Of a stretch of DNA of 50,006 nucleotides, positions 27,001-48,564 are shown one piece after another. The notes below the pieces were generated by a model. The model was not told the origin of the DNA, ran no database searches, and was given only the letters and a program-made list of their open reading frames with translations. The position numbers and the translations under genes are program-made. The stretch's first letter is position 1; the number at the start of each line of letters is the position of its first letter. The DNA is from Alphaproteobacteria bacterium (lineage in GTDB: Bacteria; Pseudomonadota; Alphaproteobacteria; SMXP01): positions 1 to 50,006 of the forward strand of contig JAJFIM010000172.1 in NCBI GenBank assembly GCA_021774995.1, written 5' to 3'.

Positions 27001-27022
27001 ATAGAAAGCTGTAGGAATTATC

Positions 27023-29074: not shown

Positions 29075-30290
29075 AAAACAAGCTTTTACAGATGATGATA
29101 ATGCACTTTTGGAAGAATTAGGCATAGAAACCGAAATTAAGAAAGCGGTTGCTCATACACCAAAAGAGGAGCGGATCATTTCCGGTTTTGAAGAAATACA
29201 AAAATTTATCGAGGATAATGGACGATTGCCTGAACATGGCGAAGATAAGGACATATTTGAACGTCTTTACGCGGTTAGGCTCGATCAAATTCGCAAGCAA
29301 GAAGAAAGCCTAACTCTTCTTAAAAATATTGATTCCCAAAACCTTTTGGATGGAAGCTACGAAGCGGCTGTAGATGTCCCAGATGATATTGACGATGATG
29401 AACTTCTAGCGCAGCTCGGTGTTGATATTGAGAGTGACAACTCCATTACAACATTAACGCATGTTAAGCCTCGCGCTGAGATAAGGGCTGCGGAAGAAAT
29501 TGCCAATCGTACCCCTTGCGAAGATTTTGAGAAATTCAAACCAGTCTTTCAAGCCGTTCAAAAAGAATTGGATATGGGCGTTAGGATTTCTCGAATAATT
29601 CGTAAAGATGCCGGCTTTTTAAAAACAGATATTAAGCAGAGAGAATTTTTCATTCTAGGCGGCCAAACTCTATATATTGCTGAGGTTGGCGAAACTATAA
29701 AAGCGCCTAACGGCCAAACAGACGCACGATTACGCGTCATTTATTCAAATGGTACTGAAAGTGATATTCTGCTTCGTTCGCTTCAACGCGCCATTTATAA
29801 AGATGAAGCGAGCAGGCATATTACAAACCCCACGGCTGGGCCTTTATTTTCCGACAAAGATAGTGAAGGTGATTTAGAAAGCGGCACTATCTATGTGCTT
29901 CGAAGCCTTTCAGATCACCCAACAGTCATAGAAAACAGAGACATTGTTCATAAAATCGGGGTTACTGGTGGTGATGTTGAAAAACGTATTACCAACGCTA
30001 AAAATGACCCAACTTTCCTCATGGCCGGTGTAGAAATCATTGCCACATACAAGCTGGCAAATATCAGCCGCACAAAACTTGAAAAAATCATTCATAAGTT
30101 CTTCAATGCTGCAAAGCTAGATATTGAAATCATAGACCGATTTGGAAAGCCTGTTACAGCTAGAGAATGGTTCTTAGTGCCAGTGTTCGTCATTGACGAA
30201 ATGGTAGAAAAAATTAGAGATGGTAGCATAAGCGAATATTATTATGACCCTAAATCTGCGTCATTAAAGAAAATGGCGGGTCTAAACTAA
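29067..30290 (+). CDS. T5orf172/MUG113 (GIY-YIG-like) domain protein with N-terminal 'GRLP' helical module
   Basis: 407 aa. C-terminal domain has GTIYVLRS...HKIGVTGGDVEKRI...AREWF. 8-nt overlap with the helicase gene. Confidence 0.8.
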   Translation: MAKKQAFTDDDNALLEELGIETEIKKAVAHTPKEERIISGFEEIQKFIEDNGRLPEHGEDKDIFERLYAVRLDQIRKQEESLTLLKNIDSQNLLDGSYEAAVDVPDDIDDDELLAQLGVDIESDNSITTLTHVKPRAEIRAAEEIANRTPCEDFEKFKPVFQAVQKELDMGVRISRIIRKDAGFLKTDIKQREFFILGGQTLYIAEVGETIKAPNGQTDARLRVIYSNGTESDILLRSLQRAIYKDEASRHITNPTAGPLFSDKDSEGDLESGTIYVLRSLSDHPTVIENRDIVHKIGVTGGDVEKRITNAKNDPTFLMAGVEIIATYKLANISRTKLEKIIHKFFNAAKLDIEIIDRFGKPVTAREWFLVPVFVIDEMVEKIRDGSISEYYYDPKSASLKKMAGLN

Positions 30291-31285: not shown

Positions 31286-32557
31286 ATGCCAACTCAGCCT
31301 GTAGCTATAACACCACCGCATACGGCCATAACTTCTTGGAGCGGTTTTATATACCAGGGCAAGGTTGCCCTGTATCACGTCCTTTGTTTACTAGAAATGC
31401 GACAAGAGTGTGAGGGATACAAATTACAGCTAGATAGCCTAGAAGATTTTGCAATTTTAGACGCTCATTCAAACCCAGTGTCTTTGCATCAAGTGAAAGC
31501 TAAAAAAACTCAATATTATAACGATTACCAAGCTGACATTATCAAAACGAAAGTAAAAGCAGCCTATTGCAATTCTGACCAAGCCTTCTTTCATACAGCC
31601 AGAGAAATTACTGATAAAACTCCAACAGAAATTGCTTCAGATGAAGAACCTGTAAAGCTGTATGAATATGATGGCAAATTCTATTGTGGAGTCGACGAAA
31701 TAGATAGCCAGATTGAAGGACAATTAAAAAAACTATGGGAAGGACAAAGTTTTAAGGAAGCTGATAGCTATACTAGAATAGCTCGTCAGCATTTTGATCA
31801 AATAATATTCAAACAAGTTTTAGCTATCCATGGAATAGTTCACGAAGGCACTCAAAGTGATACGGCAGCGGCATTTAATGAAACCATAGATTTTGATAAA
31901 TTCATTAAGCTTATAGACCATCACAATTTGATGACAATAGGCCAAAGTGAAGAATATTGGCTCTATATTCTTCTAAATGACATGCATCAATATTACCAAG
32001 AATACTGCATTAGTGAAGAGGGTAGCTTCGAAGAAGGCGAAGCAGAAAAACTGGCCAATTATATGTATGCTATAAGCAAACTAAACGAAAAAGAAATACT
32101 GCTCTTTATTAGAAGCATTACTCCACACCGAAAAGGAACCTTAAATTCTCTATCAGAATATAAGGACGAAACGTTTAACCGAGACGACTTTCACTTTGCT
32201 TTCTTAAAAATTCTAAAAACGCTTAAAAAAACGGAGATGAATAAAGGTAATTTATTGCAATGGTTGAAATTAGGCGACTTCTTTTTTCCTACAGCTATCT
32301 CATCACCGCCAAGCGCCACTACAAATGTCTGTATGAAAATCGTAAAGAATTTTAAGAACACTGATTTAGAAGTTTTATATGAAAGGTCTAAATTGATAAC
32401 CTCTGATATTGATGAACCCTCAATTTACGATGCCGTTTCTCATATTATCGGCACTGAGGGTATGGACGACATAGAAAGCAGTGAATACAATATTCTAAAT
32501 TTAAAAAAAGTAGCACTTATATCTTTAGATAAAGCAAAAGATGAAATTAATGATTGA
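31286..32557 (+). CDS. lmuA: Lamassu/ABC-3C effector with N-terminal Cap4/DUF4297-type PD-(D/E)xK nuclease (LmuA/DdmA-like)
   Basis: 423 aa. GFIYQGKVAL ... LDSLEDFAIL ... LHQVKAK is the DUF4297/Cap4 nuclease pattern. Confidence 0.7.
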   Translation: MPTQPVAITPPHTAITSWSGFIYQGKVALYHVLCLLEMRQECEGYKLQLDSLEDFAILDAHSNPVSLHQVKAKKTQYYNDYQADIIKTKVKAAYCNSDQAFFHTAREITDKTPTEIASDEEPVKLYEYDGKFYCGVDEIDSQIEGQLKKLWEGQSFKEADSYTRIARQHFDQIIFKQVLAIHGIVHEGTQSDTAAAFNETIDFDKFIKLIDHHNLMTIGQSEEYWLYILLNDMHQYYQEYCISEEGSFEEGEAEKLANYMYAISKLNEKEILLFIRSITPHRKGTLNSLSEYKDETFNRDDFHFAFLKILKTLKKTEMNKGNLLQWLKLGDFFFPTAISSPPSATTNVCMKIVKNFKNTDLEVLYERSKLITSDIDEPSIYDAVSHIIGTEGMDDIESSEYNILNLKKVALISLDKAKDEIND

Positions 32558-33269
32558 TCTTATAAAAAATATTTTTACTAGCTACGGCTACACAAATACT
32601 GGATTAGACTCTCCAGATTTAACTTTGTACTCAAGTTCAGGTGATAGAGAGGAATATTGGCTGGTAACTCGAATTAATTCCGAGACTGACGCCTTACAAG
32701 AACAGCAAAACTTTTTTGATCGATGTGCCACACACATTGATAGTCCTACCTTAGAGAAAAATGTATCACTTTTGATGGTTTGGGAAACATCTGGTCACCT
32801 TCCACTAGAGGACCTTAAGAGAAAGATCATGCAAATAGAAGAAGACGCATATTTCTTTAAAAAATATGTTTTGCATTATGCGCCGCAACAAAAAGTAGCT
32901 CTGCAGCAAGAGCTAGGAGAAGAAAACAGCTTAAAAGATTTTCTATCCGAAAAAATAGTCAACCAGGACATATTTAAAAGATACAAAAATGAAAAATTAG
33001 AGAATAGCCATACAATGACTTGGGAATCTCTAATATATCGAATGGCGATTAAAATCCCTTTCATAAACGTAAAAATTGAATCTAAAGATGATTTAGGTTC
33101 CCTAAAGAGAGAAAACCAAGAGGCAATTGATGAAAAAGAGGCGCATATAATTGAGATAAATGAAAAGCTCTTCTCTTTGAGAAAGCAAGATTACCTTTTT
33201 GACGCTGAGACCGCACCAGAGGAGTTATTGGATGCTCTAGAGGAGGAACTAAATGAAAATCAGAATTAA
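32541..33269 (+). CDS. lmuC: Lamassu/ABC-3C middle component (LmuC/DdmB-like)
   Basis: 242 aa, acidic and helical. Assigned from its position between the nuclease effector and the SMC-like ATPase, with 17-nt overlaps on both sides. Confidence 0.55.
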   Translation: MKLMIDLIKNIFTSYGYTNTGLDSPDLTLYSSSGDREEYWLVTRINSETDALQEQQNFFDRCATHIDSPTLEKNVSLLMVWETSGHLPLEDLKRKIMQIEEDAYFFKKYVLHYAPQQKVALQQELGEENSLKDFLSEKIVNQDIFKRYKNEKLENSHTMTWESLIYRMAIKIPFINVKIESKDDLGSLKRENQEAIDEKEAHIIEINEKLFSLRKQDYLFDAETAPEELLDALEEELNENQN

Positions 33270-35604
33270 GCGCATAAAAGTTGAGGGGTTTAAGTGCTTT
33301 CAGAGTTTTTCAAGAAACTTTTACAGCGAAAACATAATAATATTCGATGGGCCAAATGGATTTGGCAAAACATCTTTTTACGACGCAATTGAATTTCTTT
33401 TCACCGGCCAAGTTCGACGCTATGAAGAATTAGTGACAAGCATTGTTGATAAAAGAAGCAATAGCCAAGACGGAAGCCCACTCTTAAATAAAGACTATGA
33501 TGGGGAGGGCTTAAGTATTAAAGCTGAATTAGAGGTTAATGGAGAGACCGTCTTTTTAATGAGAAAAGAAAGTGCAGTCACTTTAAGGTCACAACAAAAA
33601 ATAAGTTCTACAAAACTCCCATTGTACCGACTGAAAAGCTTCGAAGATAACAATCCACCACGCGAAGAAAACGAGACAGAATACTTACAAGGTCTTTTTG
33701 GAAAAGATTACATCGAAAATTTTGAATATCTCAATTATATAGAGCAACAAGAAAATATATATCTACTCAAACAACCTGACAAAGGTCGTGCCACTGCAAT
33801 TGCTCATCTCTTTAAAACTTCAGAGTTTCAAAATAAAATCCAACTGATTACCGATGCAAAGAAAAAGCTTAAAAAGCTCTGTGATGCTGATAAAAAAAGG
33901 CAATTAGAATCACAAAAGCAAGATCTTGATGAACAAGAAAAACGTTTTAATGAAAGTGAAATAAATCAAGCAGATTACACGCGTTTGATCAATTGGAAAG
34001 AAATAGTATGGGACAAAAAACAAATCGACGTTCCAATATCTAGCTTTGTAGAATGGCTTGATGATGATGGCGAATTAGATGGGCTACTACAGCTAGTCAG
34101 CCATCACAAAGAGTATAAGAAAGAACGAGAAAATAGAAAAATCAAGGCACTACTTGATAATGAACCCCTATTAAAACAGTACATACAGTATTGGAAATAT
34201 ATAGAGAAAGAACCCAGCCTATCACGCGCACTGAGTTTACAAGATGAAATAACTGATTTTTTAAAATCCTATGAAAATGGTGTTGTAAACCACATTGAAA
34301 AAGATCCCTTTGTTTTAAGCGAAGATCTTAAAAGTATATTACAACAAACAGAACTAATTGATTACACAAGCTACACCCCAAGTTTAGAGCATATAAAATC
34401 AGTTCAAAGCAGAACTAACTCCTTCTCTGTAATGTTGACTAAAATTCAAAGTACCAGACAGAATTTTATTGATAAATTTTTAAAGCACTCAACAGAGTTA
34501 GCACATGAAGGCGCTTGTCCATTATGCGGTTACTCATGGGAAGATTTAGAAAAACTAAAAAAAGAATTTAAAGAACAAGAAAAGCATTTCCAAGTCTTGA
34601 TAGAGAAAGAAGGAGCTGAGCTAAATCGAGCAGTAGAAGCCTTTGAAAAACAAACATTAGTTCCTTTGAAAACGTTTTTAACTGAATATAAAAATCAGCA
34701 CAAAATAGACAAAGAATTTGTTCTTAAATTGCAGAAGGCAGTACAAAACAGAGATCATTTACATAGGTTAAACCAGGCTTTAGAAGCTAGAGGCATCAAC
34801 ACTCTTGAATACACGAAAGAAGCAAACATTGGTCATGATGAAGTAGGAATAAATGCGTTACTCAGAGAAATATCGTCTCAAGTAAAGGCAGTGGACTATG
34901 AAAAAATACAGTCAAACTATGATGCACTATTTATAGAAATCTTTGAAAAAAGCTTTGATAAGCTCAGTTCAATAAGCGCTGATGATATGAAAAATAAAAT
35001 TACATTCATAAAATCACAATTTGCCCTTAAGAGAAGTGAAGATATTCAGAAAAAACGTAAAGAATATACACACTCTGAAAAACTATTTAAGCGAGCAAAA
35101 AATACACACTTAAAACTAAGTGAACTGGAGAAAATATACAAAAAATCTTTAAGTGACTATCAAAGTAGTTTTATCGAAAATATAGAAATATTATTTCATA
35201 TCTACTATGGACGGATAGCACAAGAAACAAAGAATAGCTTGGGGCTTTTTATTCAATCCGATGGAAGTGCTATAAAATTTTTAGAACACCATTCCAGAGA
35301 TACTGACGCGATTTTTACTATGAGTGCCGGCCAATTGGCGACACTAGTAATCGCTTTTACACTTGCATTAAACAAACGGTTTTCTAAAAACAAGCTTCTC
35401 TTTATTGATGATCCCATACAAACGTTAGATGAGTTAAATATAGCCGGTTTAGTTGAGTTGTTGCGTAATGAGTTTGATGACCAACAAATTTTCTTATCTA
35501 CGCACGAAGATTCAATGTCCACTTACATTAGGTATAAATTTAAAAAATTCGGACTCCAGCACGAAAGACTAAGCTTTAAAGAAGCACAACTTAAAGCTAT
35601 CTGA
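33253..35604 (+). CDS. lmuB: Lamassu SMC/Rad50-like ABC ATPase (LmuB/DdmC-like) with central CxxC zinc hook
   Basis: 783 aa. Walker A GPNGFGKTS, signature MSAGQLATL, Walker B LLFIDDP, LSTHE. Long coiled coil with CPLCG at aa 422-426. Confidence 0.8.
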   Translation: MKIRIKRIKVEGFKCFQSFSRNFYSENIIIFDGPNGFGKTSFYDAIEFLFTGQVRRYEELVTSIVDKRSNSQDGSPLLNKDYDGEGLSIKAELEVNGETVFLMRKESAVTLRSQQKISSTKLPLYRLKSFEDNNPPREENETEYLQGLFGKDYIENFEYLNYIEQQENIYLLKQPDKGRATAIAHLFKTSEFQNKIQLITDAKKKLKKLCDADKKRQLESQKQDLDEQEKRFNESEINQADYTRLINWKEIVWDKKQIDVPISSFVEWLDDDGELDGLLQLVSHHKEYKKERENRKIKALLDNEPLLKQYIQYWKYIEKEPSLSRALSLQDEITDFLKSYENGVVNHIEKDPFVLSEDLKSILQQTELIDYTSYTPSLEHIKSVQSRTNSFSVMLTKIQSTRQNFIDKFLKHSTELAHEGACPLCGYSWEDLEKLKKEFKEQEKHFQVLIEKEGAELNRAVEAFEKQTLVPLKTFLTEYKNQHKIDKEFVLKLQKAVQNRDHLHRLNQALEARGINTLEYTKEANIGHDEVGINALLREISSQVKAVDYEKIQSNYDALFIEIFEKSFDKLSSISADDMKNKITFIKSQFALKRSEDIQKKRKEYTHSEKLFKRAKNTHLKLSELEKIYKKSLSDYQSSFIENIEILFHIYYGRIAQETKNSLGLFIQSDGSAIKFLEHHSRDTDAIFTMSAGQLATLVIAFTLALNKRFSKNKLLFIDDPIQTLDELNIAGLVELLRNEFDDQQIFLSTHEDSMSTYIRYKFKKFGLQHERLSFKEAQLKAI

Positions 35605-35736: not shown

Positions 35737-37146
35737 ATGCACGAAATCATCTGCCCGCACTGCGATAAGGCATTCAAAATCGACGAAGCCGGATATGCCG
35801 ACATTCTAAAGCAGGTTCACGATAGTGAGTTTGAGCAACAGTTGCATGATAGGCTTGAACTGGCCGAAAAGGACAAACTAAAGGAAGTGGAGCTCGCCAA
35901 GAGTAATATCAAAAACGAAATGCAGGAAGTTGCGGCAGCTAAGGATACTGAGATTAATGAATTGAAAGCAAAATTAGATGCTGGTGAGGTGGCACGGAAA
36001 TTAGCAGTGGCAGAAGCTCTAAGTGCTGTAGAGAAAGAACGCGACGTGCTTGCCAACGAACTAAAGCAGGTGAAGCAAGATAGTCTTGCTGCTTCAAAGT
36101 TAGCTGAGGCAAACCTTTCTAAGGAGCTGCAGGGGGTTTCTACATCAAAGGATGCAGAGATTCAGGGGTTAAATGCAAAACTAAATTCCAACGAAATTGC
36201 ACAGAAACTAGCTATCACCGAAGCACTTGGAGCGGTTGAGAAGGAGCGTGACGAACTGAAAAATGGTCTTATACAATCAAAGCTTGAGAAGGAAATTTCT
36301 GAGAAAGCGCTCAAAGACAAGTATAAGACCCAGATAAGAGATCGTGATGATGCTATTGAACGTCTCAAGGATATGAAGGCTCGCCTGTCGACCAAAATGG
36401 TTGGAGAAACCCTTGAGCAGCACTGTGAAACAGAGTTTAATCGTATTCGAGCGACAGCGTTTCCAAGAGCTTATTTCGAGAAGGATAACGACGCAAGTGC
36501 CGGCAGCAAAGGCGACTATATTTTTCGTGACTCAAATGAGTCCGGTACTGAAATCGTCTCAGTTATGTTTGAGATGAAGAATGAGAATGATGAAACAGCG
36601 ACAAAAAAGAAGAACGAAGATTTTCTTAAAGAACTCGATAAGGATCGTAATGAAAAGAACTGTGAATATGCGATCTTAGTATCTCTTCTTGAGCCTGAGA
36701 GCGAGCTTTACAATTCAGGTATTGTCGACGTGTCCCACCGTTATCAGAAAATGTATGTCGTTCGACCTCAATTTTTTATCCCAATCATTACGTTGTTGCG
36801 AAATGCCGCTCAAAATTCACTGCAATACAAAACAGAACTTGCTATGGTAAAGTCACAAAGCATTGATATTACTAACTTCGAGGACGATCTAGATGAGTTT
36901 AAAACAGGTTTTGCACGGAACTACGAACTAGCATCCAAGAAATTTAAAACGGCTATTTCTGAGATCGATAAAACTATCGACCATCTTCAAAAAACCAAGG
37001 ATGCACTACTCGGATCAGAGAACAACCTCCGCCTTGCAAATAACAAAGCTGACGACTTGTCCGTCAAAAAACTAACCAAGAATAATCCAACGATGGCCAA
37101 GAAGTTTGCCGATCGTAAGGATAATGATACAATTGATTCTGATTAA
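35737..37146 (+). CDS. DUF2130-family protein (N-terminal zinc ribbon, coiled coil, C-terminal PD-(D/E)xK-like domain)
   Basis: 469 aa. [17 protein letters not shown] start, a tandemly duplicated coiled-coil segment, and a C-terminal GDYIFRD...FEMKNE block. Confidence 0.75.
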
Positions 37147-37467: not shown

Positions 37468-37848
37468 TCAACGCTTCAGTGCTAACAAACATAATGCGCC
37501 AACACTCAAAAAACAGGCCATGTTTAGGTCTGGACTATTTGGTTCATGTCCAGCCGCCCATGTAACAAAATGCTGGCAGTTAAATAATAAGAACCATTTT
37601 TGTCCCAAAGCACTTCGCGCGTTTCTCGCGACCTGTGATGATGGAAGAGTTGATGTATATTTCTTTGAAATTATAACATCGCAACCATTCGCATACTCTT
37701 CCACCAATGACATTACAACGCCACCAGAAAACGGCGTATTATGAATGACCATCAATTGATGTCCGTGCATTACCACAATGCCTGGGTGAGTTATCACTCC
37801 TGCTTTTTTTCTTTCTACGATTGCCCCCTCATAAAACCTTGACCACAT
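37468..37848 (-). CDS. LRAT/PLAAT-like (NlpC/P60 superfamily, 'NC domain') protein with C-terminal TM anchor
   Basis: 126 aa. H-box THPGIVVMHGHQLMVIHN, catalytic-Cys box GQKWFLLFNCQHFV (compare NCEHFV in PLAAT/HRASLS), C-terminal hydrophobic helix MACFLSVGALCLLAL. Confidence 0.7.
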   Translation of the reverse strand: MWSRFYEGAIVERKKAGVITHPGIVVMHGHQLMVIHNTPFSGGVVMSLVEEYANGCDVIISKKYTSTLPSSQVARNARSALGQKWFLLFNCQHFVTWAAGHEPNSPDLNMACFLSVGALCLLALKR

Positions 37849-37917
37849 AACATTTCCTTTTTATAATTTAAATTAACAAATAACCATTAACAAATACGAT
37901 AACGGATAATTGAAAAA

Positions 37918-38289
37918 ATGCAAGAACAATCTATTGCTACTAGTTATGCAGCCATATTGGGGCAAATGATCAAGCAGCTAAGAGAGGCAAAGAATGCGGA
38001 TCAGGCCAATCTAGCTAATCATTTAGGTGTTAGCGTCATGACCATTTCGAGAATTGAGAGTGGAGATACTGTTCTGGACGTGCCTCAAATGGAAAAAGTG
38101 GCTAGTTTTTTTAATATGGAAGCCACCGATTTTTTTGAGAACTCACTTAAAATAAAGAAGAAAGCAGAGAATCAAAATTATACGGTATTTCAAAATAAAA
38201 AAGAAATTAACAAACACTCTAATGTAGCCTTGTTAAGCGTTGCAGCCATTGTGGGCATTGTTGCTGGTATTATGCTGTCAAAGAAATAA
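37918..38289 (+). CDS. XRE-family HTH protein with C-terminal transmembrane anchor
   Basis: 123 aa. HTH QANLANHLGVSVMTISRIESG. C-terminal TM VALLSVAAIVGIVAGIML. Divergent from the LRAT-like gene across a 69-bp spacer. Confidence 0.7.
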   Translation: MQEQSIATSYAAILGQMIKQLREAKNADQANLANHLGVSVMTISRIESGDTVLDVPQMEKVASFFNMEATDFFENSLKIKKKAENQNYTVFQNKKEINKHSNVALLSVAAIVGIVAGIMLSKK

Positions 38290-38326: not shown

Positions 38327-41275
38327 ATGTGCATGGATCAAAAGACCTTCAAATCACTGCTAAAATACTATCTCTCCTGCATGGATGCGGAGGAAGCGAC
38401 TCATCTGCAGCTTAGGAAAAATCAAGAAAACAAAAGCTATATCTTCTTGAACAGTAATAAAGGTGAGAGCCTGTTTTCAGAAGATCTGCCTCAATTAGAA
38501 CTATCAGTCACGGACAGCAGACAAAAAAAGTTTATTGAGCGTAAAGCCCCCAATACAGAGACTCTCATTGACCTCCAATATGGTTTTCCTGTTTTTGTGG
38601 ATGAGAAGGACATGCTTTCTCCTTTGTTTTTTGTAGAAGTGGAAGCTGCATTTTCTGACCAAAATACACTGCGCATTCTTCCTCAAATTAAAAGCTTCTC
38701 AATAAATCGCGTGCATTTTGTCAAACAATATGGCGCAGAGGAAACGCAGCGTATTTGTGAAGAGCTTGAAGGTGAATTTGGTAGCTTCGAAGCCCGCATT
38801 AAGGCTGCACAACCCTATATCCCTTCTCTTGCAAAGAAATCAAAACATGAATGGATAGAGCGCCCTATTCTTTTTCGTACAAACTTTGGCGGGTCGCGAT
38901 CTGGGCAACGTTATGACCTGACCCATCTGCTCAAAGATAAGAATGCGTATAGCAAAGATACGGCCTTAAAATACTTTCTTCAGGCAAATGAAAACACCAC
39001 GCAGGAAAATAGTTACAATAATATTGATCCATCCATCTTGGAAATTGGTTCACTTAACGCTCAGCAAGAAGAAGCTGTAGCTAAAGGGTTAGTGGAACCG
39101 TTATCTGTTGTTACCGGTCCTCCAGGAACCGGGAAAACACAGGTGGTTACAGCTTTACTGGCGAGCGCGATTTATAACAATGAGACAGTTTTATTCTCCA
39201 GCAATAACAATATGCCCGTTGACGGTGTGTATGAGCGCTTAGGCCAAAACACCGGAGGCATAGGAAATTGGCTTATGCGTCTGGGCAATCAGAGCAAGAG
39301 GCAGTCTTGTTATAAAGTAATATCCTCTTTGTTAGAGCGCGCTGAAACGAGCGACTTCTCGGACCTTTCATCAAATGCTGAAAAAGAGGAGTTCGCTGAT
39401 TTAGAACGAGATATTATAAAAGCGCGCGCATCACTAAAAAAGGCGCAGACTTTACAAGAAGAGATATCCAAACTGCACAATAAAGAGAAAGTTATTGAGC
39501 AAAGGCTTCCGGAAAGCTGGGTTCAGCAATTTTCTGATATTGATCCAATTACTTTAGACCAAAGCCTCCTTAAAAAGTTAGGTAGGCACAGCTGTTCGGG
39601 GTTTTGGCTTTGGTTGCGTCATAAGCTGCTTGGCGTAGAGAGGTTTGTAAGCGCGCATAATGCACAGCTCACCAAGCTATGTGGTGATGATGACTGTTTA
39701 TCAGAATATGAAGGATGGCTTCTTTTAGATGAAAATTGGGATGAGTCGGTCAGCAAGGCCCAGCAGGTCGTTAAATATTTATCGCAACATCAAAGCTGGA
39801 GTTCATGCATCCAAAAACGCCGGCGCTTAGAGGATAAAATAGCTCAGCATTCTTCAATTACGGATGTGTTTGATTTGAAAATCAAAAAATCAAAGGCTTC
39901 TCAAGCATTATTTGAAAAATGGTGGCTTCATAATATCAAAAACCAAACTAAAGAGGCTGTAGAAGCCTTTAAAAACTATTTTAAAGATACTGATAACTAT
40001 GATGCCGGCAGACATAAGCGTCTTGCAAAATCCATAAACGCATTAAAGCGCTTTTTCCCGATTTGGATCACAACAAATCAATCCGCCAGTGCCATTATGC
40101 CTCCGCAGGCTGCATTGTTTGATTTGGTTGTCATTGATGAGGCTGGACAGTGCGATATCCCTTCTATTATCCCGCTTCTTTATCGGGCCAAACGCGTTGT
40201 TATTATTGGCGACCCTCATCAATTTAAGCACATCACATCATTAAAAGATGATATGGAGCACGCTATTGCCCAAGAAATAGGGATAGAAGAAATTGTAGAT
40301 GAATGGTCGTTTACGCGCAGGTCTGCCTTTGATCGCTCTTATGCCTCTGCAGAATCTACATCATTTTTAAAACAGCATTATCGTTGCCACCCTGACATTA
40401 TTGAGTTCTCAAATCTAAATTTCTACGATGGAAAACTGATTGAACAGATAGCACTATCGCAATTTCAAAATCGATTACCTATCGAAGAGCATGGCCTTAT
40501 ATGGCACAATACGAGGGGGGAGGCGCGCAAAGCGAAGAAAGGTGCATGGAACCCAGCAGAAATTGAGAAAACAGTACAAATATTTGAGCGTTGGGCAGAG
40601 CAAGGTTTGTTTGCTGATCCTACAATCACTTATGGCATTGTGACACCTTTCCGCAAGCAAGTTGAAGAAATGCGCAAAGCATTATCAAACCTCTCTTGGT
40701 TTCGATCCGTTGAGGATCGTTTTACAATCGGTACAGCGCATAGTTTTCAAGGGAGCGAATGTGACGTCTTGGTTTATTCTCCTGTTGTTGCGGAGGGTAT
40801 GGAGAATTACCTCATTAAATTTGCAGCAGCTCAAAAAGACTTGATTAACGTCACAGTCACCCGTGCAAAAAATTTACTTTATATCGTTGGTGATCTTCAT
40901 GCATGCCAAGCAGCCTCATCGGATACTCCATTACATCAACTTGCCACTTACGCTGAACGTATTCGAAAGCAACAACAGCACCCTATGAATGCCGCTGAAA
41001 AAGCGATGGCTGAAGTGCTGGAAGGTCTGAAATTGAGCTATGTACCTCAATATGAACTTGGGCAGTACCGTCTTGATTTTATGCTCAATTCCCCTTCAGG
41101 AGAACGTTACGATGTTGAGGTTGATGGCGATATTCACCTCACGGCAGATGCAATTAAGCATGATGAGAGGCGGGATGCTTATGTTGAGAGCAGAGGTTTA
41201 AAAATACTGCGATTTGCTGCGCGTGACGTCATTCACAAGCCTGAAGTAATCAAAGAGAGGCTTATGCGCATCTGA
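38327..41275 (+). CDS. SF1 (DNA2/Upf1-like, AAA_11/AAA_12) helicase fused to C-terminal DUF559/Vsr-like endonuclease; Hhe-like single-gene defence candidate
   Basis: 982 aa. Walker A GPPGTGKTQ, VVIDEAGQC, IGDPHQ, YRCHP, GTAHSFQGSECDVLV, VTVTRAK. The C-terminal YRLDF...DVEVDGDIH...D..R...L...G..ILRF is the DUF559 pattern. Confidence 0.8.
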   Translation: MCMDQKTFKSLLKYYLSCMDAEEATHLQLRKNQENKSYIFLNSNKGESLFSEDLPQLELSVTDSRQKKFIERKAPNTETLIDLQYGFPVFVDEKDMLSPLFFVEVEAAFSDQNTLRILPQIKSFSINRVHFVKQYGAEETQRICEELEGEFGSFEARIKAAQPYIPSLAKKSKHEWIERPILFRTNFGGSRSGQRYDLTHLLKDKNAYSKDTALKYFLQANENTTQENSYNNIDPSILEIGSLNAQQEEAVAKGLVEPLSVVTGPPGTGKTQVVTALLASAIYNNETVLFSSNNNMPVDGVYERLGQNTGGIGNWLMRLGNQSKRQSCYKVISSLLERAETSDFSDLSSNAEKEEFADLERDIIKARASLKKAQTLQEEISKLHNKEKVIEQRLPESWVQQFSDIDPITLDQSLLKKLGRHSCSGFWLWLRHKLLGVERFVSAHNAQLTKLCGDDDCLSEYEGWLLLDENWDESVSKAQQVVKYLSQHQSWSSCIQKRRRLEDKIAQHSSITDVFDLKIKKSKASQALFEKWWLHNIKNQTKEAVEAFKNYFKDTDNYDAGRHKRLAKSINALKRFFPIWITTNQSASAIMPPQAALFDLVVIDEAGQCDIPSIIPLLYRAKRVVIIGDPHQFKHITSLKDDMEHAIAQEIGIEEIVDEWSFTRRSAFDRSYASAESTSFLKQHYRCHPDIIEFSNLNFYDGKLIEQIALSQFQNRLPIEEHGLIWHNTRGEARKAKKGAWNPAEIEKTVQIFERWAEQGLFADPTITYGIVTPFRKQVEEMRKALSNLSWFRSVEDRFTIGTAHSFQGSECDVLVYSPVVAEGMENYLIKFAAAQKDLINVTVTRAKNLLYIVGDLHACQAASSDTPLHQLATYAERIRKQQQHPMNAAEKAMAEVLEGLKLSYVPQYELGQYRLDFMLNSPSGERYDVEVDGDIHLTADAIKHDERRDAYVESRGLKILRFAARDVIHKPEVIKERLMRI

Positions 41276-42066: not shown

Positions 42067-42531
42067 TTATTGATAAAAATATTGCCCTAAATACTCTCCA
42101 TTAACCCACATTTTGACGTAATGGGGCTTTGGCCGGATCAAAGCTTGATAATTCTCGCACCTGTCATTCTCTTGATATTGCCCAGGAGCGCATTGTGTAC
42201 GGTAGCACAAACCTTGCGTAGCCCTATATCCTTGCTGTTTTTCTCTTAAAACATAACCCTCATCACACGGCTCAAAACGCTCGTAACCTAGTTGATAGTA
42301 CCCATCAACTTTTTCTCCATTTGGCCCTGTTGTGCATGACGATAATTTAGGAAGAGGATCTCGACCTTTCTTTATGCGCTTCTTAAATTCACTATAGGCT
42401 CCGCCACAACCTGACGGGAATCCACCCGGCAAACAAATCCAAATAGCGCAGGCGTCTTGACTAGAAGCCAGTGCCGTTTTGCCATTGAAAATAATCAACA
42501 CAGCCACCACGATCATCATAAAAAATTTCAT
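42067..42531 (-). CDS. secreted cysteine-rich protein, possibly TrbM-like conjugal transfer protein
   Basis: 154 aa with a signal peptide. The CAIWICLPGGFPSGC block resembles the C.A.LCL motif of TrbM (from memory). Operonic with the XRE regulator. Confidence 0.35.
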   Translation of the reverse strand: MKFFMMIVVAVLIIFNGKTALASSQDACAIWICLPGGFPSGCGGAYSEFKKRIKKGRDPLPKLSSCTTGPNGEKVDGYYQLGYERFEPCDEGYVLREKQQGYRATQGLCYRTQCAPGQYQENDRCENYQALIRPKPHYVKMWVNGEYLGQYFYQ

Positions 42532-42926
42532 TTACTTTTATCCTCCTGCTCTATGAAAGAAGTCTGATACTGCTGAGAAAATTGTCGCAATGTTCTAATA
42601 AGCGCTAAAAAATCAACCCTGATGTCGTTTGGCACACTATAGAATTCACTTACAAGTTGAAGAAGGTCATGATCTTCAATGTTAAACGGCGCGAGCTTCT
42701 CTATAAAAAAGTAATTGATGGAAACGCCAAGAATATCAGCACAATTCTTAAGTCTTTCTGCCGATAGCCTATTCTCACCTGTTTCATATTTGTGAATTTG
42801 CTGCGCTCTAACGCCTATAAGGTCACCTAATTCCCCCTGTGACAGCCTTCTGTTTTGGCGAAGAAAACTTAATTTTCTTCCTAAATTTGCGTTAAAGTCT
42901 ATGTTTTCTGATCTGGCTTGCTCCAT
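42528..42926 (-). CDS. XRE-family transcriptional regulator divergent from virB2
   Basis: 132 aa. HTH LSQGELGDLIGVRAQQIHKYETGENRLS. Confidence 0.8.
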   Translation of the reverse strand: MEQARSENIDFNANLGRKLSFLRQNRRLSQGELGDLIGVRAQQIHKYETGENRLSAERLKNCADILGVSINYFFIEKLAPFNIEDHDLLQLVSEFYSVPNDIRVDFLALIRTLRQFSQQYQTSFIEQEDKSK

Positions 42927-43191: not shown

Positions 43192-43482
43192 ATGCGCAGC
43201 ACACATCTATTATTCTTAATGCTTTCACTGATACTTATTTCATTTCCTGAAACTGCATATGCACAAGCGTTATTTGATTCAGGCACTAATTTCCTTACTG
43301 CTCTGCAAAATCTTCTTACCAACACATGGGCGCGGATTATCGCCATCATTGCTGTTATTGGCCTTGGCATACTCTGGATGACAGGAAGATTGGCATGGGG
43401 TGTTGCCGCTTCAATTATTGGCGGAATTATACTTGTATTCGGCGCTCCTGCGATCGTGGACAGTATAGCTGGCTCGCTTTAG
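43192..43482 (+). CDS. virB2: VirB2/TrbC-type T4SS pilin
   Basis: 96 aa. Signal peptide ending AYAQ, two hydrophobic helices, position ahead of virB3/virB4. Confidence 0.85.
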   Translation: MRSTHLLFLMLSLILISFPETAYAQALFDSGTNFLTALQNLLTNTWARIIAIIAVIGLGILWMTGRLAWGVAASIIGGIILVFGAPAIVDSIAGSL

Positions 43483-43493
43483 AGAGCCGGCAA

Positions 43494-43802
43494 ATGAATT
43501 ATGAAGAAGATATAGATTTTGACCCATTATTTGTTGGTATGACCAGGCCCCCAATAGTCATGGGCGTTCCAATGGAATTTTTCGGTATCAACTTTATTTT
43601 ATTTGGAATAGGCATGATCGCTTTTTCTTCTTTAACAGCAAAAGCCCTTTTTGTTTTGCTGGCCTGTTTGCCTCTCCATGCTTTGGGGTACATCGCAACT
43701 GAGAAAGAGCCTCACTGGATGAGTATATATCTCACAAAAATTACCAAGTGTGGCCCTATCCAAAACAAGGGCTTTTGGAAAACCAATAGCTATAAACCAT
43801 GA
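43494..43802 (+). CDS. virB3: VirB3
   Basis: 102 aa from the ATG at 43494 (MNYEEDIDFDPLFVGMTRPPIVMGVP..). The 56 residues added in the track ORF (from 43326) overlap virB2 out of frame. Confidence 0.85.
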   Translation: MNYEEDIDFDPLFVGMTRPPIVMGVPMEFFGINFILFGIGMIAFSSLTAKALFVLLACLPLHALGYIATEKEPHWMSIYLTKITKCGPIQNKGFWKTNSYKP

Positions 43803-43817
43803 GGGTAAGAAATAATT

Positions 43818-46226
43818 TTGTTAAAAGCCATAAGAAGAAAGGATATGCAGCTTGGAAGAATCGCGCAGCGTGAAGTTTCTGCGGCAAGCTTCATTCCGTA
43901 TTCAAGGCATTATGACGACACAACATTAAAAACCAAAGCAGGATACCTTCTCAAAATTATAAAGATTGAAGGCCTTCCTTTTGAAACGGCCGATCAAGCT
44001 GATTTAAACGCCAGAAAGAACATCCGCGCTACACTTTTAAGAGGCATCAGCAACTCTCGCTTTGCTATTTATCATCACACTATTCGCCGCCGCGTATCAG
44101 ATAAGCTAGACGGATTATTTGAAAATGATTGGTGCCGGCAACTTGATACAGCCTATCAAGAAAAGCTGTCTCAAAAGAATATGTTCGTGAACGAACAATA
44201 TATTACAATCGTGAGACGCCCCCCGCAGAGCAAAATTGGAATAATGGCCAATATTAGCGGCATCGTCTTTTCTTCTGTAGATCGGTCTGCACGAGAACAA
44301 AAAGACTTTGAAAACCTTAAAGCTCTCAACGAAGCCGTAAACAATATCGTTTCAACTCTAAAACCATACAAACCAAGGGTTTTGAGTGTTATTGATACTG
44401 ACAAAGGTGCATTTTCAGAAAACTTATCGTTTCTTTCCTATTTGATAAATTTGGAAGATAAGCAGGTACGCTTGCCCGCCTGCTCTATAGCAGAATATTT
44501 GCCTGAAAAACGGATTTCATTTGGACGAGAAACTTTTGAAATGCGAGGGGCGGCATCAAGTGATGTCAAGCTAGGCGCAGTGTTATCAGTTAAAGAATAC
44601 GATAACTCTACCGGCCCTGGTATGTTAGATTCATTCCTTCGCCTTCCCCATGAATTTATACTGACACAATCTTTTGGTTTTGTTGATAGGCAGACCTCCC
44701 TCAGCGCCATGAACGAAGCTGAAAGGAAAATGATTGCTTCAGAACAAGGAGCAGACAGCCTTATTATAGATATTCAAGACGCAAAAAATGACCTGTCTTC
44801 GGGAAAATCTTCATTTGGAGAACATCATATTTCACTGACTGTCTTTGCGGACGATAAAGACCAGCTTGATAAATCAATCAGTGACTCATTGAGTGCATTT
44901 ACCAATATTGGCTTAATTTGTACACGTGAAGATGTAAATTTAGAACCTGCGTTTTGGGCAAATCTACCTGCTAACTTCAGCTATATTTCGAGAAGATCAC
45001 TTATCTCAAACCAAAATTTCGCCAGTTTTGCCAGTCTGCATACTTTTCCAGCCGGAAGCAAAACTGAGAACCACTGGGGCAGTGCAATTACTAGGCTAGA
45101 AACAACCTCTGGCACACCATACTGGTTCAATTTTCATGAGCGTGATGTCGGAAATTTTACGGTTATCGGCCCTACTGGTACAGGCAAAACCGTTTTACTA
45201 ACTTTTCTCATGGCTCAAGCACAAAGATTAAAACCACGTTCTGTATATTTCGATAAAGATCGAGGAGCTGAAATCTTTATACGAGCGATTGGTGGCGAAT
45301 ATACGATTGTAAGCCCTGGCAAGCCTACGGGATTAAACCCACTACTATTACAAGATACGCCCAAAAACAGAGGGTTTTTAAGAGACTGGCTACAGCTTCT
45401 TGTATCTGACGATAATCATCACCGATTAACATCGAAAGAAATTGATATTATTTCGGACGCCGTAAATGCAAATTATGAAGCCCCTCCTGAAAACAGACGC
45501 CTGCGCTATTTGGCAGAACTTTTGGCAGGTTATGGATCAGAAAACGACTCTTCACTTGGGGAACGCATTGCGAAATGGCACTCCAATGGTGAACGGGCGT
45601 GGTTATTTGACAGTGCCACTGACAGCTTATCACTAGACAACCAAACTATTGGATTTGATTTAACATCAATTCTGGATGATCCAAAAGCCCGCGCTCCTTG
45701 GCTTCTATACGTTTTTCATAGAATTGACGAACTGCTTGATGGGCAAAAAACCATTCTCATGCTCGATGAGGGCTGGAAGATGCTTGATGACCCCGTATTT
45801 ACAGCGCGCATAAAAGATTGGATGAAAACAATCCGTAAACAAAACGGCATACTCGGTTTTGCAACACAATCTGTCAGAGATGCACTGAACTCAGAGGTTG
45901 GCGATACGATAATTGAACAATCATTTACCCAAATATTTTTGCCCAATAATAAAGCGTCTGAAGAAGATTACTGTAAGGGTTTTGGCCTTACCCACCAAGA
46001 GCTAATGATAATCCGTGAACTTACACCAGAGTCACGCTGTTTCTTAGTAAAGCACGGCAGCGACTCTGTGATCGCCAAACTAGATTTAGACAACATGGAT
46101 GATTTCATTTCAGTGCTATCCGGCAGAACTGAAACTGTGAAGCTCCTTGAAGAGATTATGGACGAAACTGGGACAGAACCAGATAAGTGGCTGAACGCAT
46201 TTTTACAAAGGAGTAGGAAGCTATGA
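43818..46226 (+). CDS. virB4: VirB4 T4SS ATPase
   Basis: 802 aa with TTG start. Walker A GPTGTGKT and Walker B ILMLDEGW. Typical size and position. Confidence 0.95.
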   Translation: MLKAIRRKDMQLGRIAQREVSAASFIPYSRHYDDTTLKTKAGYLLKIIKIEGLPFETADQADLNARKNIRATLLRGISNSRFAIYHHTIRRRVSDKLDGLFENDWCRQLDTAYQEKLSQKNMFVNEQYITIVRRPPQSKIGIMANISGIVFSSVDRSAREQKDFENLKALNEAVNNIVSTLKPYKPRVLSVIDTDKGAFSENLSFLSYLINLEDKQVRLPACSIAEYLPEKRISFGRETFEMRGAASSDVKLGAVLSVKEYDNSTGPGMLDSFLRLPHEFILTQSFGFVDRQTSLSAMNEAERKMIASEQGADSLIIDIQDAKNDLSSGKSSFGEHHISLTVFADDKDQLDKSISDSLSAFTNIGLICTREDVNLEPAFWANLPANFSYISRRSLISNQNFASFASLHTFPAGSKTENHWGSAITRLETTSGTPYWFNFHERDVGNFTVIGPTGTGKTVLLTFLMAQAQRLKPRSVYFDKDRGAEIFIRAIGGEYTIVSPGKPTGLNPLLLQDTPKNRGFLRDWLQLLVSDDNHHRLTSKEIDIISDAVNANYEAPPENRRLRYLAELLAGYGSENDSSLGERIAKWHSNGERAWLFDSATDSLSLDNQTIGFDLTSILDDPKARAPWLLYVFHRIDELLDGQKTILMLDEGWKMLDDPVFTARIKDWMKTIRKQNGILGFATQSVRDALNSEVGDTIIEQSFTQIFLPNNKASEEDYCKGFGLTHQELMIIRELTPESRCFLVKHGSDSVIAKLDLDNMDDFISVLSGRTETVKLLEEIMDETGTEPDKWLNAFLQRSRKL

Positions 46227-46969
46227 AATTATTAAAAATATTGATGCTCTCCGCCGCAATTTTGGTTTGCCAAAACTTGGAAGTTAAAGCGCAGGGCATA
46301 CCCGTCTATGACAATGCAGGCTTCGTGCAACTGATTGCACAAGTAAATGCTATGGCTGATGACTACCAAAAACAAATCCAGCAGCTTGAAGAAGCAGTCA
46401 GGCAATCAGACGCCATTACCGGCACGCGGAACATGGGTGATGTAGCAAACGGGCTATTAGAACAGCAATTACGCGAGTATCTCCCTAATACGTGGCAAGA
46501 GACTATGAATATTATAAACAGCGGAAATATCCCAACCGGCGCACTTGGCACACAAAGCATATACAGCAATCTCTATGATGAATACTCCCCATTAACTGGA
46601 TCGGATTTAATGCCATCAGATCCATCAAGCAATGTCGCCAAAGCAATAGATCGCAGAACCGAAACAACCTATGCAGCCATGTCTGCAAGCGAACAAGCAT
46701 ACAATAATGTTCCTGTAAGAATGCAAACCTATGAAACATTATTAGACGAGCTTAATAGCAGCGATGATCTAAAAACGTCCGTGGATCTTCAAGCTAGAAT
46801 TACAGCAGAAAACGGAGTGGCACTTAATGAGCTGATGAGGCTCAACGCAATTCGTATTCAACAAAATGCGTCAGTTGATAACGAAACACTGATGAATAGC
46901 CGCAGAGCCAGCTCATTCAATGTCTACGACCCTGCCCTTGCAAGAGCAGCTATGGAACTACCAAACTAA
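46223..46969 (+). CDS. virB5: VirB5/TrbJ-family minor pilus subunit
   Basis: 248 aa. Signal peptide, then QGIPVYD and coiled-coil sequence. ATGA overlap with virB4. Confidence 0.75.
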   Translation: MKLLKILMLSAAILVCQNLEVKAQGIPVYDNAGFVQLIAQVNAMADDYQKQIQQLEEAVRQSDAITGTRNMGDVANGLLEQQLREYLPNTWQETMNIINSGNIPTGALGTQSIYSNLYDEYSPLTGSDLMPSDPSSNVAKAIDRRTETTYAAMSASEQAYNNVPVRMQTYETLLDELNSSDDLKTSVDLQARITAENGVALNELMRLNAIRIQQNASVDNETLMNSRRASSFNVYDPALARAAMELPN

Positions 46970-46980
46970 GGAGAAAAACT

Positions 46981-47166
46981 ATGAAAAAACTACTCACTAT
47001 TGCCTGCGTAATATCTGCACTTTCCCTTGGCGGCTGTGCTTCTCAATACAAAGAGAAAAAAGCCCCGTGCGGAAATGCAAAAACAGCCTCTTTATCGAGC
47101 AATCCCTGTGATCCACTGCCAATCAATGTCGCGGTGATTAAAACAAAGGGCACTAAAAACTCATGA
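46981..47166 (+). CDS. VirB7-like small lipoprotein
   Basis: 61 aa. Lipobox LSLGGC. The PCDPLPINV segment resembles the VirB9-binding P-[ILV]-N motif of VirB7/TraN. Confidence 0.5.
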   Translation: MKKLLTIACVISALSLGGCASQYKEKKAPCGNAKTASLSSNPCDPLPINVAVIKTKGTKNS

Positions 47167-47558
47167 GAAAAAAAATCTTAATAACATCACTGGCCGCAAC
47201 GCTGAGCTTAACGGCCTGCTTTGGTGAAAAGAACCCTCTTAACGAAATTTCTCCTACGATTTTAGCCAATGAAATATTTGAAATTGGAGAGGATGCAAAT
47301 GATTGTATGCAGCTCTGGGACAACCCAAAAGCCGCAAGCCCTCAAGGAGTTATATATCAAACTTGCGAGGACAGCGCTTCCAAAATCGCCATTCATTTCA
47401 CAAAAGCAGGATACGGCGACATAACTGCTTACAACGTAAAATCCCTAAATAATTGGGAGAATATTGAGGCCGAAGTGAAAGTCTTGAGAAAAACTAGGCG
47501 TGAAAACGTAGGAGATACAATGAAAAACGTATTTCCAGACTGGAGCAAACAGCCTTGA
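47163..47558 (+). CDS. lipoprotein, possible entry-exclusion (Eex-like) protein
   Basis: 131 aa. Lipobox LSLTAC. Lies between virB5 and virB6, where pKM101-type systems carry eex. Confidence 0.45.
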   Translation: MRKKILITSLAATLSLTACFGEKNPLNEISPTILANEIFEIGEDANDCMQLWDNPKAASPQGVIYQTCEDSASKIAIHFTKAGYGDITAYNVKSLNNWENIEAEVKVLRKTRRENVGDTMKNVFPDWSKQP

Positions 47559-48562: not shown

Positions 48563-48564
48563 AT

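Follow-up and report, generated by a model that had tools for sequence, protein, structure and literature searches.

Tox-Act1 and TseH, two toxins of the permuted NlpC/P60 type, are phospholipases whose toxicity needs the catalytic histidine and cysteine and whose immunity protein is embedded in the membrane (PMC12994826), and PLAAT phospholipases break down damaged organelle membranes (PMC12017856). Here, we characterize a locus in which a small PLAAT-like enzyme is paired with a DNA-binding protein of the XRE family. The window, i.e. the whole stretch of DNA that was analysed, comprises 50,006 nucleotides of an alphaproteobacterium (assembly GCA_021774995.1, contig JAJFIM010000172.1, positions 1 to 50,006). 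Region 37468-38289 of this window is a self-contained, horizontally mobile two-gene cassette, encoding the enzyme on one strand and the XRE protein on the other. An earlier annotation of the locus, made from the letters alone and called the first-pass annotation below, had suggested a lipid-targeting toxin or abortive module with a membrane-tethered repressor or, alternatively, a two-gene toxin-antitoxin (TA) system. Our preferred reading, to which we give slightly less than an even chance, is that the cassette is a repressor-gated PLAAT-type membrane-lipid toxin serving abortive infection or addiction.

The cassette measures 822 bp and consists of two divergent genes and their shared spacer, with sharp edges on both sides (Table 1). 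Both open reading frames (ORFs), the 69-bp spacer and its two 11-bp repeats were found exactly where they had been placed before. Using blastn, homology between the window and two other loci (L001 and L002; loci are numbered consecutively) was confined to 37470-38285/38289, running from stop codon to stop codon and taking in both genes and the spacer. Since homology to other loci ends at the two stop codons, the two genes form a portable cassette. No conserved flanking inverted or direct repeats were found and mobility by way of such repeats was therefore rejected. Purifying selection acts on both genes, tails included, with ratios of nonsynonymous to synonymous substitution rates of 0.05-0.13 (0.06-0.13 for the enzyme, 0.05-0.08 for the XRE protein). 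The G+C content of the cassette is 38% and that of the window 41.5%.

Table 1. Positions of cassette features, conjugation-related genes and CBASS-linked relatives; coordinates refer to the window unless a locus is named.
Feature	Position	Strand	Description
LRAT/PLAAT-like enzyme gene	37468..37848	-	126 aa; presumed effector, tail-anchored Cys-His enzyme; from ORF list
Enzyme C-terminal anchor helix LNMACFLSVGALCLLAL	37477..37527	-	Residues 108-124; Kyte-Doolittle mean 2.20; followed by Lys-Arg and stop
NC box Asn90-Cys91-Gln92-His93	37570..37581	-	Cys91 is the predicted acyl-enzyme nucleophile; aligns to NCEHF of PLAAT2/3
Cys91 codon TGC	37576-37578		
His36 codon CAT (VIHN)	37741..37743	-	Third triad position
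His21 codon CAC (H-box HPGIVV)	37786..37788	-	Predicted general base; invariant in the 61-sequence alignment A3
Promoter-like site for XRE gene, TTGACC-17-TATAAT	37839..37867	+	11/12 consensus positions; -35 box overlaps enzyme codons 2-4
Shared control region between divergent start codons	37849..37917	.	69 bp
Two 11-bp direct repeats ATTAACAAATA	37872-37882 and 37886-37896	+	Presumed operator; 14 bp apart
XRE-family repressor gene (putative)	37918..38289	+	123 aa; tail-anchored; HTH_3 E 1.4e-9
Intragenic third copy of operator-like word AAATTAACAAA	38204..38214	+	Exact copy of 37870-37880, inside XRE gene
XRE C-terminal anchor helix VALLSVAAIVGIVAGIM	38224..38274	+	Residues 103-119, contains GIVAG; Kyte-Doolittle mean 2.67; followed by LSKK and stop
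SF1 (superfamily 1) helicase (AAA_11/AAA_12) with C-terminal DUF559/MTES_1575 nuclease	38327..41275	+	982 aa; starts 37 nt after XRE stop
ArdC anti-restriction/metallopeptidase gene	20620-21498		
VirB3, VirB4, VirB5-like, VirB6/TrbL and VirB8 genes	43326-49239		Conjugation genes, 5 kb from cassette
CBASS-linked genes for LRAT-like enzymes with transmembrane (TM) helix	L011 5001-5366; L012 5001-5366; L013 5001-5363		

The two genes recur together. A neighbourhood survey, proposed along with the original suggestion, returned 16 distinct loci in which the enzyme is syntenic with an XRE protein ending in a TM helix (XRE-TM); all pairs are divergent, with spacers of 26-131 bp, and the series extends down to about 24-35% identity across Alpha-, Beta- and Gammaproteobacteria. 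This recurrent synteny excludes chance adjacency. In the close clade (L001-L007) a divergent XRE-TM partner lies beside every enzyme homologue looked up, and it is still found at 34-37% enzyme identity (L009 and L010). Searching plasmids via tblastn identified further pairs, carried by cultured bacteria, on Vibrio anguillarum plasmid p15 (WP_019283185 and WP_019283186) and on pH1NP1 of Polaromonas sp. H1N (WP_181375202 and WP_181375203). Approached from the other side, 9/9 distinct loci reached via the XRE-TM protein carry the enzyme (three by homologue look-up and six in species-representative genomes, with three loci found by both routes). The three looked-up XRE homologues each have a divergent LRAT-like, tail-anchored neighbour of 124-127 aa, and the six species-representative pairs belong to Emcibacter, Kordiimonas, Micavibrio, a Rickettsiales metagenome-assembled genome and two other such genomes of Alphaproteobacteria. 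Pairwise identities of enzyme and XRE protein co-vary (r=0.83, a value inflated by shared ancestry), while the enzyme diverges faster than the regulator (36-56% versus 61-72% identity at the same loci).

Most copies of the cassette sit in defence islands, plasmids or transposons. The family is rare: enzyme-profile pattern scans of 185,579 species genomes missed the close clade, an artefact of pattern specificity, the XRE-based scan gave six loci, all with the enzyme, and a metagenome scan returned only one locus, which was already known. At the nucleotide level, the region had no match in collections of plasmids and phages, and phage searches were likewise negative, whether by tblastn of the enzyme against phages, in PHROGs or in IMG/VR using the enzyme or XRE profile. 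By these searches, the cassette is thus not phage-borne.

Several comparisons place the enzyme in the LRAT/PLAAT group. It matches the Pfam family LRAT (PF04970) at 25.6 bits with a cutoff of 24.3 (E 1.6e-5), which is marginal for a single sequence; this is its only Pfam match and no Peptidase_M78 domain was detected. An AlphaFold2 model built on eight homologues (predicted local distance difference test score, pLDDT, of 82.5) was compared with the PDB using Foldseek, where the top three matches were all human PLAAT3, also named AdPLA or HRASLS3 (4fa0, 7zom and 4dot; E 1.6e-5 to 9e-5; TM-score 0.68-0.70, normalised to target length). A family profile of 61 sequences (alignment A3) matched PLAAT2, PLAAT3 and PLAAT4 chains in the PDB at E 2e-10 to 2e-6, the best being PLAAT2 at 2e-10, and in the alignment with PLAAT2/3 both the NC box (facing NCEHF) and the Ser-x-Gln motif ahead of the anchor fall into register. 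Taken together, the Pfam, Foldseek and profile results bear out the fold that had been suspected. The HPGIVV, VIHN and NCQHFV boxes are likewise present, and the codons for His21, His36 and Cys91 can be read directly. The catalytic order is permuted, with the H-box histidine coming first and the cysteine lying near the C-terminus in Asn90-Cys91-Gln92-His93-Phe94. Across the diverse members of A3, His21, Asn90, Cys91, His93 and Ser105 are invariant.

The C-terminal TM helix claimed for both proteins is seen as a hydrophobic tail in each, followed in both cases by two basic residues. In case of the enzyme, an NC box can be recognised in 138 family members, and in 130 of them such a terminal helix comes after it. 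An exhaustive profile search recovered 399 cluster representatives at E<=1e-3, nearly all of 115-150 aa and matched through the C-terminal helix, and a word-indexed search gave only eight close relatives. The enzyme has no signal peptide region, no N-terminal trafficking domain and no secretion-linked neighbours; the C-terminal anchor is the only such element.

The 123-residue partner protein contains an HTH_3 helix-turn-helix (HTH) domain (38.3 bits with a cutoff of 23) with the five-helix fold of this group and was modelled using AlphaFold2 (39 homologues, pLDDT 91.5). The best structural matches of the HTH domain were the restriction-modification (R-M) controllers C.BclI, C.AhdI and C.Esp1396I (TM-score 0.76-0.84, target-length normalised; root-mean-square deviation 1.4-1.5 Å), followed by DdrO, ClgR, Stl and SinR, with all matches covering only the HTH core of about 66 residues. 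Beyond this core the model consists of a long helix, a short beta-strand paired with the N-terminus, about a dozen polar residues and the tail helix. The latter is kept in every XRE partner protein, down to 24% identity. Although useless for plain repression, the anchor is conserved, which suggests membrane sensing or direct contact with the enzyme. Small-xxx-small motifs in the tail (GIVAG in the window, GAALG in L010 and L015) would be compatible with helix-helix pairing. In PADLOC, only generic HTH models matched the protein (HTH_VI, the RmrA N-terminus, PDC-M69A and Control_protein).

Some superficially similar genes were set apart from the cassette. Replicons of Aeromonas, Acinetobacter, Pectobacterium, Priestia, Cupriavidus and Caballeronia encode longer LRAT proteins, which belong to a different subfamily without an XRE-TM partner. 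Those on Aeromonas, Acinetobacter, Pectobacterium and Priestia plasmids (L021 3986-5041, L022 3998-4663, L023 3971-4477 and L024 3962-4507) have the boxes HYSG...NNCEHF and a length of 168-221 aa. The Aeromonas and Acinetobacter proteins have Gly/Ala/Thr-rich tails, and the Aeromonas gene adjoins DUF2787, RadC and YeeU-type genes, a neighbourhood that matches an association cluster described for Vibrio (PMC12409351). A PspA/IM30 fusion in distant relatives of the enzyme was considered as a membrane clue and rejected (27.5 bits with a Pfam cutoff of 33.9). On Staphylococcus aureus plasmids (L020 2404-3420), an XRE protein with two C-terminal TM helices is encoded divergently from a small secreted protein; as this partner is unrelated to LRAT, the Staphylococcus genes were rejected as instances of the same module.

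The spacer between the two start codons holds ATTAACAAATA exactly twice. In the whole window, allowing at most one mismatch, 4 matches were counted with about 3 expected, so that the repeat is not significant by count and draws its weight from position and conservation. Even in relatives that have reached saturation at synonymous sites, the spacer shows a core repeat TAWWTGWTAAT spaced at 14 bp. The 14-bp period is seen in L025, L031 and L035 and a 21-bp period in L007; within the superclade defined by at least 58% XRE identity, this repeat persists together with the GTTA/ATTA cores, and distant pairs have other repeats or palindromes at the equivalent position, e.g. TATATTCA-N5-TGAATATA in L009. 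Spacer identity is 72-90% among loci with a synonymous divergence of about 0.6-1.9, i.e. the spacer is conserved beyond the synonymous rate, and its GTTA/ATTA cores are invariant. Both hexamers of the promoter-like site for the XRE gene, TTGACC and TATAAT, are conserved in L001-L005. The repeats begin 5 bp past the -10 box, between it and the XRE start codon, and judging from this arrangement they must overlap the leftward promoter driving the enzyme gene, whichever one that is. Such a layout would be that of an autoregulated repressor gating a divergent gene, with the repeats as its presumed binding sites. The operator-like word occurs a third time within the XRE gene, as AAATTAACAAA, at a distance of about 330 bp from the copies in the spacer, and this copy is also kept in L001 (7626-7644). 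Because it encodes the conserved KEINK motif, a role at the DNA level (looping, or a roadblock ahead of the helicase gene) and protein constraint are inseparable.

A sister branch of the enzyme family is linked to the cyclic oligonucleotide-based antiphage signalling system (CBASS). In L011-L013 the enzyme gene stands at the end of a SMODS-E2-patatin CBASS operon and lacks an XRE-TM partner. It overlaps the patatin phospholipase gene or starts 13 nt after it, and HTH and Peptidase_M78 regulators are encoded upstream. Two homologues of this kind (P0165 and P0167, about 30% identity) keep the H-box, an NCDHF box, an SPQL motif and the tail anchor. Among plasmid relatives of P0165, the Polaromonas enzyme is the nearest, and since this one is paired with an XRE-TM protein, the two contexts are interleaved in one family. 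Further, the occurrence of the enzyme beside a lipid effector and without the tethered repressor argues for the enzyme as the active component of the cassette rather than as a modifier of the repressor. The gene would represent an accessory gene of some patatin-type CBASS operons for which we came across no description. No SMODS or patatin gene adjoins the cassette of the window or was found among the window ORFs scanned (20.6-49.2 kb).

What the results show are the anatomy of the genes, their obligatory pairing and the limits of the cassette, the fold and conserved catalytic residues of the enzyme, both tail anchors, purifying selection, a conserved spacer and a setting in defence or mobile DNA. 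Based on these results, we propose the following tentative mechanism for a repressor-gated lipid toxin, in which we infer that the XRE protein binds the repeats, and likewise infer the lipid substrate, the toxicity, the trigger and any phage phenotype. The PLAAT/LRAT-type Cys-His acyl-enzyme domain of about 105 residues would sit at the cytoplasmic face of the inner membrane, fixed there by its C-terminal tail anchor, and the controller-like XRE repressor would be tethered to the same face by a similar anchor. The repressor, probably dimeric through its GxxxG-type tail helix, would occupy the repeated GTTAA-type sites just downstream of its own near-consensus promoter and over that of the enzyme, keeping the enzyme gene silent and limiting its own expression. 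Since it shares one membrane surface with the enzyme, the repressor may, in addition, hold it in check by direct action. Once repression is lost, be it because the envelope or membrane is perturbed, because the cell is infected or because the repressor decays, the enzyme would be made and would deacylate or transacylate phospholipids of the inner membrane in a PLAAT-like manner. The resulting membrane damage would stop or kill the cell, leading to abortive infection or, for the carrier element, addiction.

A number of points weigh against this proposal. Its functional steps are deduced from sequence and models. The two genes are divergent and do not form a co-directional TA operon; post-segregational killing cannot result from gating at the level of transcription alone, and during infection such gating would need host transcription to be active. 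Promoter-like sites are no more numerous in the region than expected by chance. Conservation of the expected His/His/Cys triad extends to His21 and Cys91, but His36, although invariant in the close clade, gives way to Ser or Cys in many distant members. Enzyme relatives show weak, sub-threshold matches to PPPDE isopeptidases (Peptidase_C97), so that a peptide or isopeptide substrate is conceivable, and the CBASS-linked enzyme lacks a dedicated antidote and may therefore not be lethal alone. Finally, at least one cassette (L039) is surrounded by metabolic genes. The overall interpretation of the first-pass annotation is partly supported. It stands with regard to fold, catalytic residues, synteny and a mostly defence-related context, and it withstood the two of its own refuting conditions that were examined by computation, since the catalytic His and Cys are conserved in homologues and the pair is syntenic elsewhere. 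The layout of a classical bicistronic TA operon is not found, as the genes are divergent in 16/16 pairs. A more far-reaching version, possible though doubtful, regards the cassette as an unrecognised anti-phage or abortive system in which a PLAAT phospholipase tail-anchored to the inner membrane is the killer and the tethered repressor reports a breach or perturbation of the envelope. Taken with the CBASS-linked branch, the PLAAT fold would then be an immune effector class shared by bacteria and animals, and eukaryotic PLAATs, as well as the picornaviral 2A H/NC proteins, would descend from or converge with a bacterial defence effector built in the same way from a catalytic domain and a tail anchor.

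The weak PPPDE likeness of the enzyme relatives, together with the fact that NlpC/P60 enzymes include peptidases, also leads to a quite different and rather improbable explanation, namely that the enzyme is a papain-fold thiol peptidase or isopeptidase that cleaves the XRE repressor near its anchor, as ImmA acts on ImmR, CapP on CapH and PprI on DdrO. The output of such a regulated-proteolysis switch would be the neighbouring defence genes, here the gene at 38327-41275. In favour of it, enzyme and repressor are both assigned to one face of the membrane, the HTH domain has DdrO and Stl among its structural matches, the XRE gene is followed in 7 loci by a defence-type gene of the same strand, 36-226 nt away, and no promoter-like or terminator-like site separates the XRE and helicase genes. 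In another 7 loci, however, the next gene is convergent, which together with the end of homology at the stop codons means that the cassette must carry its own output. The closest relatives in sequence and structure are lipid acyl-hydrolases and acyltransferases rather than peptidases, distant pairs do not conserve the stretch of the repressor next to the membrane, and the enzyme also occurs without XRE-TM as the terminal gene of CBASS operons, beside the effector.

This CBASS linkage can be read in the opposite direction as well: translational coupling to patatin in the absence of an antidote is what would be expected of a non-toxic accessory. Given that LRAT/PLAAT enzymes are acyltransferases as well as phospholipases (PMC12994826), the tethered XRE protein may sense bilayer damage and induce an acyltransferase that re-acylates lysophospholipids, shielding the cell from phospholipases, whether its own CBASS patatin or lipases of type VI secretion systems, and from phage or colicin damage. 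A membrane-tethered sensor-regulator would be a natural detector of membrane state, and the non-defence context of L039 is compatible with such repair. We nevertheless regard repair as unlikely, since the family is rare, patchy and horizontally mobile, being carried by plasmids, Tn7-like elements and defence islands, as would be expected of conflict genes more than of homeostasis, and the enzyme evolves faster than the regulator. Similarly low is the probability we assign to pure addiction, where a labile XRE-TM antitoxin would neutralise pre-made enzyme through membrane contact and no anti-phage role would exist. Here, the HTH-level similarity to HipB, MqsA, PezA and ParS-type antitoxins, the usual antitoxin layout of an N-terminal DNA-binding domain and a C-terminal partner-binding segment, the tail helix conserved in all pairs and the carriage on a conjugative element, plasmids and a Tn7-like transposon are all as expected of a TA system. 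The divergent orientation is not, several copies are chromosomal and lie within recognised defence-system clusters, and the CBASS-linked branch points to an immune effector role. A repressor-gated lipid toxin, able to serve either abortive infection or addiction, is hence the reading we prefer.

With respect to genomic context, the window represents a conjugative element (a plasmid or an integrative and conjugative element), as indicated by ArdC and the VirB-type genes listed in Table 1; it contains no tRNA genes. The cassette is part of a defence cluster with the order MmeI-type R-M, DEAD helicase, T5orf172, ABC-3C, DUF2130, cassette and SF1 helicase-nuclease. At other loci, the neighbours are SIR2-HerA and ApeA (L001); a BrxC-like, TerB and DEAD set with a helicase-DUF2726 gene and an Hhe-like gene (L002); Trypsin_2, MrcB_N/NOV_C and OLD-UvrD genes (L003 and L004); AbiEi (L009); a restriction endonuclease and type I R-M (L015); GIY-YIG, DEAD and PDDEXK genes (L019); MvaI/BcnI R-M, GmrSD-HEPN and Hachiman (L031); Tn7-like TnsB, TniB and TniQ (L035); a CHAT protein (L037); a Gabija-like OLD ATPase with UvrD (L041); and recombinases (L010 and L025).

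The gene following the XRE gene in the window had been called an Hhe-like helicase at a distance of 37 nt. The spacing is correct, but the Hhe label is only loosely right: the Mokosh MkoC/MkoA models score better (E 4.6e-57 versus 2.2e-16 for Hhe), and the protein reaches 74 bits with an NCBIfam Hhe cutoff of 2000 and also falls well below the ProA cutoff. Given the lack of any promoter-like or terminator-like site in the gap, the helicase gene is probably co-transcribed with the XRE gene from the XRE promoter in the window. Helicase homologues also follow the cassette in L003-L005. The downstream gene nonetheless varies in identity between loci and is as often convergent as on the same strand (7 loci each), which, with homology ending at the stop codons, led us to reject the helicase as part of the unit.

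Other genes of the window and of related flanks deserve brief mention. Stretch 23564-30290 encodes an MmeI-family type IIL R-M enzyme (918 aa), a CoiA_N-like protein, a DEAD/ResIII helicase (683 aa) and a T5orf172/MUG113 protein (407 aa) and may be a further defence operon. It is followed at 31286-35604 by an ABC-3C three-component system made up of CTD1 (423 aa), MComp1 (242 aa) and an ABC/SMC-like ATPase (783 aa), the last of which also matches the LmuB and MADS3 models. The DUF2130 protein at 35737-37146 (469 aa) starts with a zinc-ribbon-like N-terminus, contains a coiled coil and has no PADLOC match; its gene also adjoins the cassette in L008, with 91% nucleotide identity. A second XRE HTH gene (132 aa) on the minus strand at 42067-42926 overlaps by 4 nt with a 154-aa ORF of no known family, and these two could form a separate TA-like or regulatory pair. 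The flanks of L001, L003-L005 and L008 have in common an N6_N4 methyltransferase gene followed by a DUF5681 gene, where the methyltransferase of L008 carries a ParB_N domain, and L001 and L008 additionally share a 195-aa gene and a GIY-YIG gene. The loci may thus belong to one family of mobile elements that has a variable hotspot for defence genes.

In terms of novelty, small toxin plus regulator modules in defence islands are of a known kind; new are the effector family, the double tail-anchor design and the link to CBASS. The enzyme matched none of the families in PADLOC-DB v2.0.0 at E<=0.1 and none in NCBIfam or PHROGs. In literature on LRAT, PLAAT and NlpC/P60 proteins in connection with CBASS, anti-phage activity, defence and TA, we found no description of an LRAT/PLAAT plus XRE-TM pair, and LRAT-family genes near defence genes were mentioned only incidentally, for Vibrio and Psychrobacter. 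This is in agreement with the earlier statement that no described defence system of such composition was known. If our reading is correct, the cassette would add a new effector chemistry to bacterial defence and TA systems, i.e. thiol acyl-hydrolysis of the PLAAT type, directed at membrane lipids from within the cytoplasm. It would also add a new regulatory design, a gene switch located on the membrane by virtue of a repressor whose tail anchor is its only extra feature. Further, a bacterial counterpart of the eukaryotic PLAATs, which act in organelle membrane breakdown, would become available for functional tests, and an unannotated accessory gene would be flagged in some patatin-type CBASS operons. 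With a length of 822 bp and sharp boundaries, the cassette is easy to synthesise and test.

Compared with known systems, the cassette combines features that are otherwise found apart. Like the type II TA systems with XRE antitoxins (HipBA, HigBA, MqsRA and RES-Xre), it is a two-gene unit on mobile DNA with a probably autoregulating HTH protein, to which the HTH profiles show weak similarity, but its genes are divergent, both partners are tail-anchored and the toxin family would be new for TA. The R-M controllers C.BclI, C.AhdI and C.Esp1396I are small autoregulatory XRE proteins that bind repeats in their own promoter region and control the expression of a toxic gene carried by mobile DNA, a mode of action that the putative repressor of the window would share. 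These controllers are soluble, have about 75-80 aa and are co-transcribed with the nuclease, whereas the XRE protein of the window adds a beta-strand linker and a membrane anchor and would gate a divergent gene. CapH/CapP, ImmR/ImmA and DdrO/PprI similarly couple an XRE repressor to a hydrolase beside defence or mobile-element genes; there the hydrolase is a soluble M78 metallopeptidase and the genes are normally co-directional, as opposed to a PLAAT-fold thiol enzyme, two anchored proteins and divergent genes in the window.

On the side of the effector, CBASS with the patatin CapV defends by destroying phospholipids, and the sister enzyme is encoded right after patatin in SMODS-E2-patatin operons; the window cassette differs in having no cyclase, nucleotide sensor or patatin gene. 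The picornavirus 2A H-box/NC proteins (7zv1 and 7zv6) share the fold and a hydrophobic C-terminal segment and give a weak profile match (E 0.002-0.003), but they are very distant parts of eukaryotic RNA-virus polyproteins with no known catalysis. Tox-Act1 and TseH are bacterial conflict toxins of the same superfamily as the enzyme that cleave phosphatidylglycerol and phosphatidylethanolamine and are neutralised at the membrane by a TM-bearing partner. These toxins are secreted and act in the periplasm of rivals, fall into clades separate from LRAT and have an immunity protein without DNA-binding domain, whereas the enzyme of the window is predicted to be intracellular and tail-anchored and has no linked secretion genes. 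The greatest likeness is to eukaryotic PLAAT/HRASLS and LRAT proteins (PF04970; 4fa0, 4dot, 7zom and 4dpz), with which the enzyme has in common the permuted NlpC/P60 fold, the order of H-box, second polar residue and NCEHF-type box, the Ser-x-Gln/Asp-Leu/Val linker and the single C-terminal membrane helix. What sets it apart from them is that it is bacterial and only 126 aa long, has about 23% identity, carries NCQHF in place of NCEHF and travels on mobile DNA together with a dedicated putative repressor.

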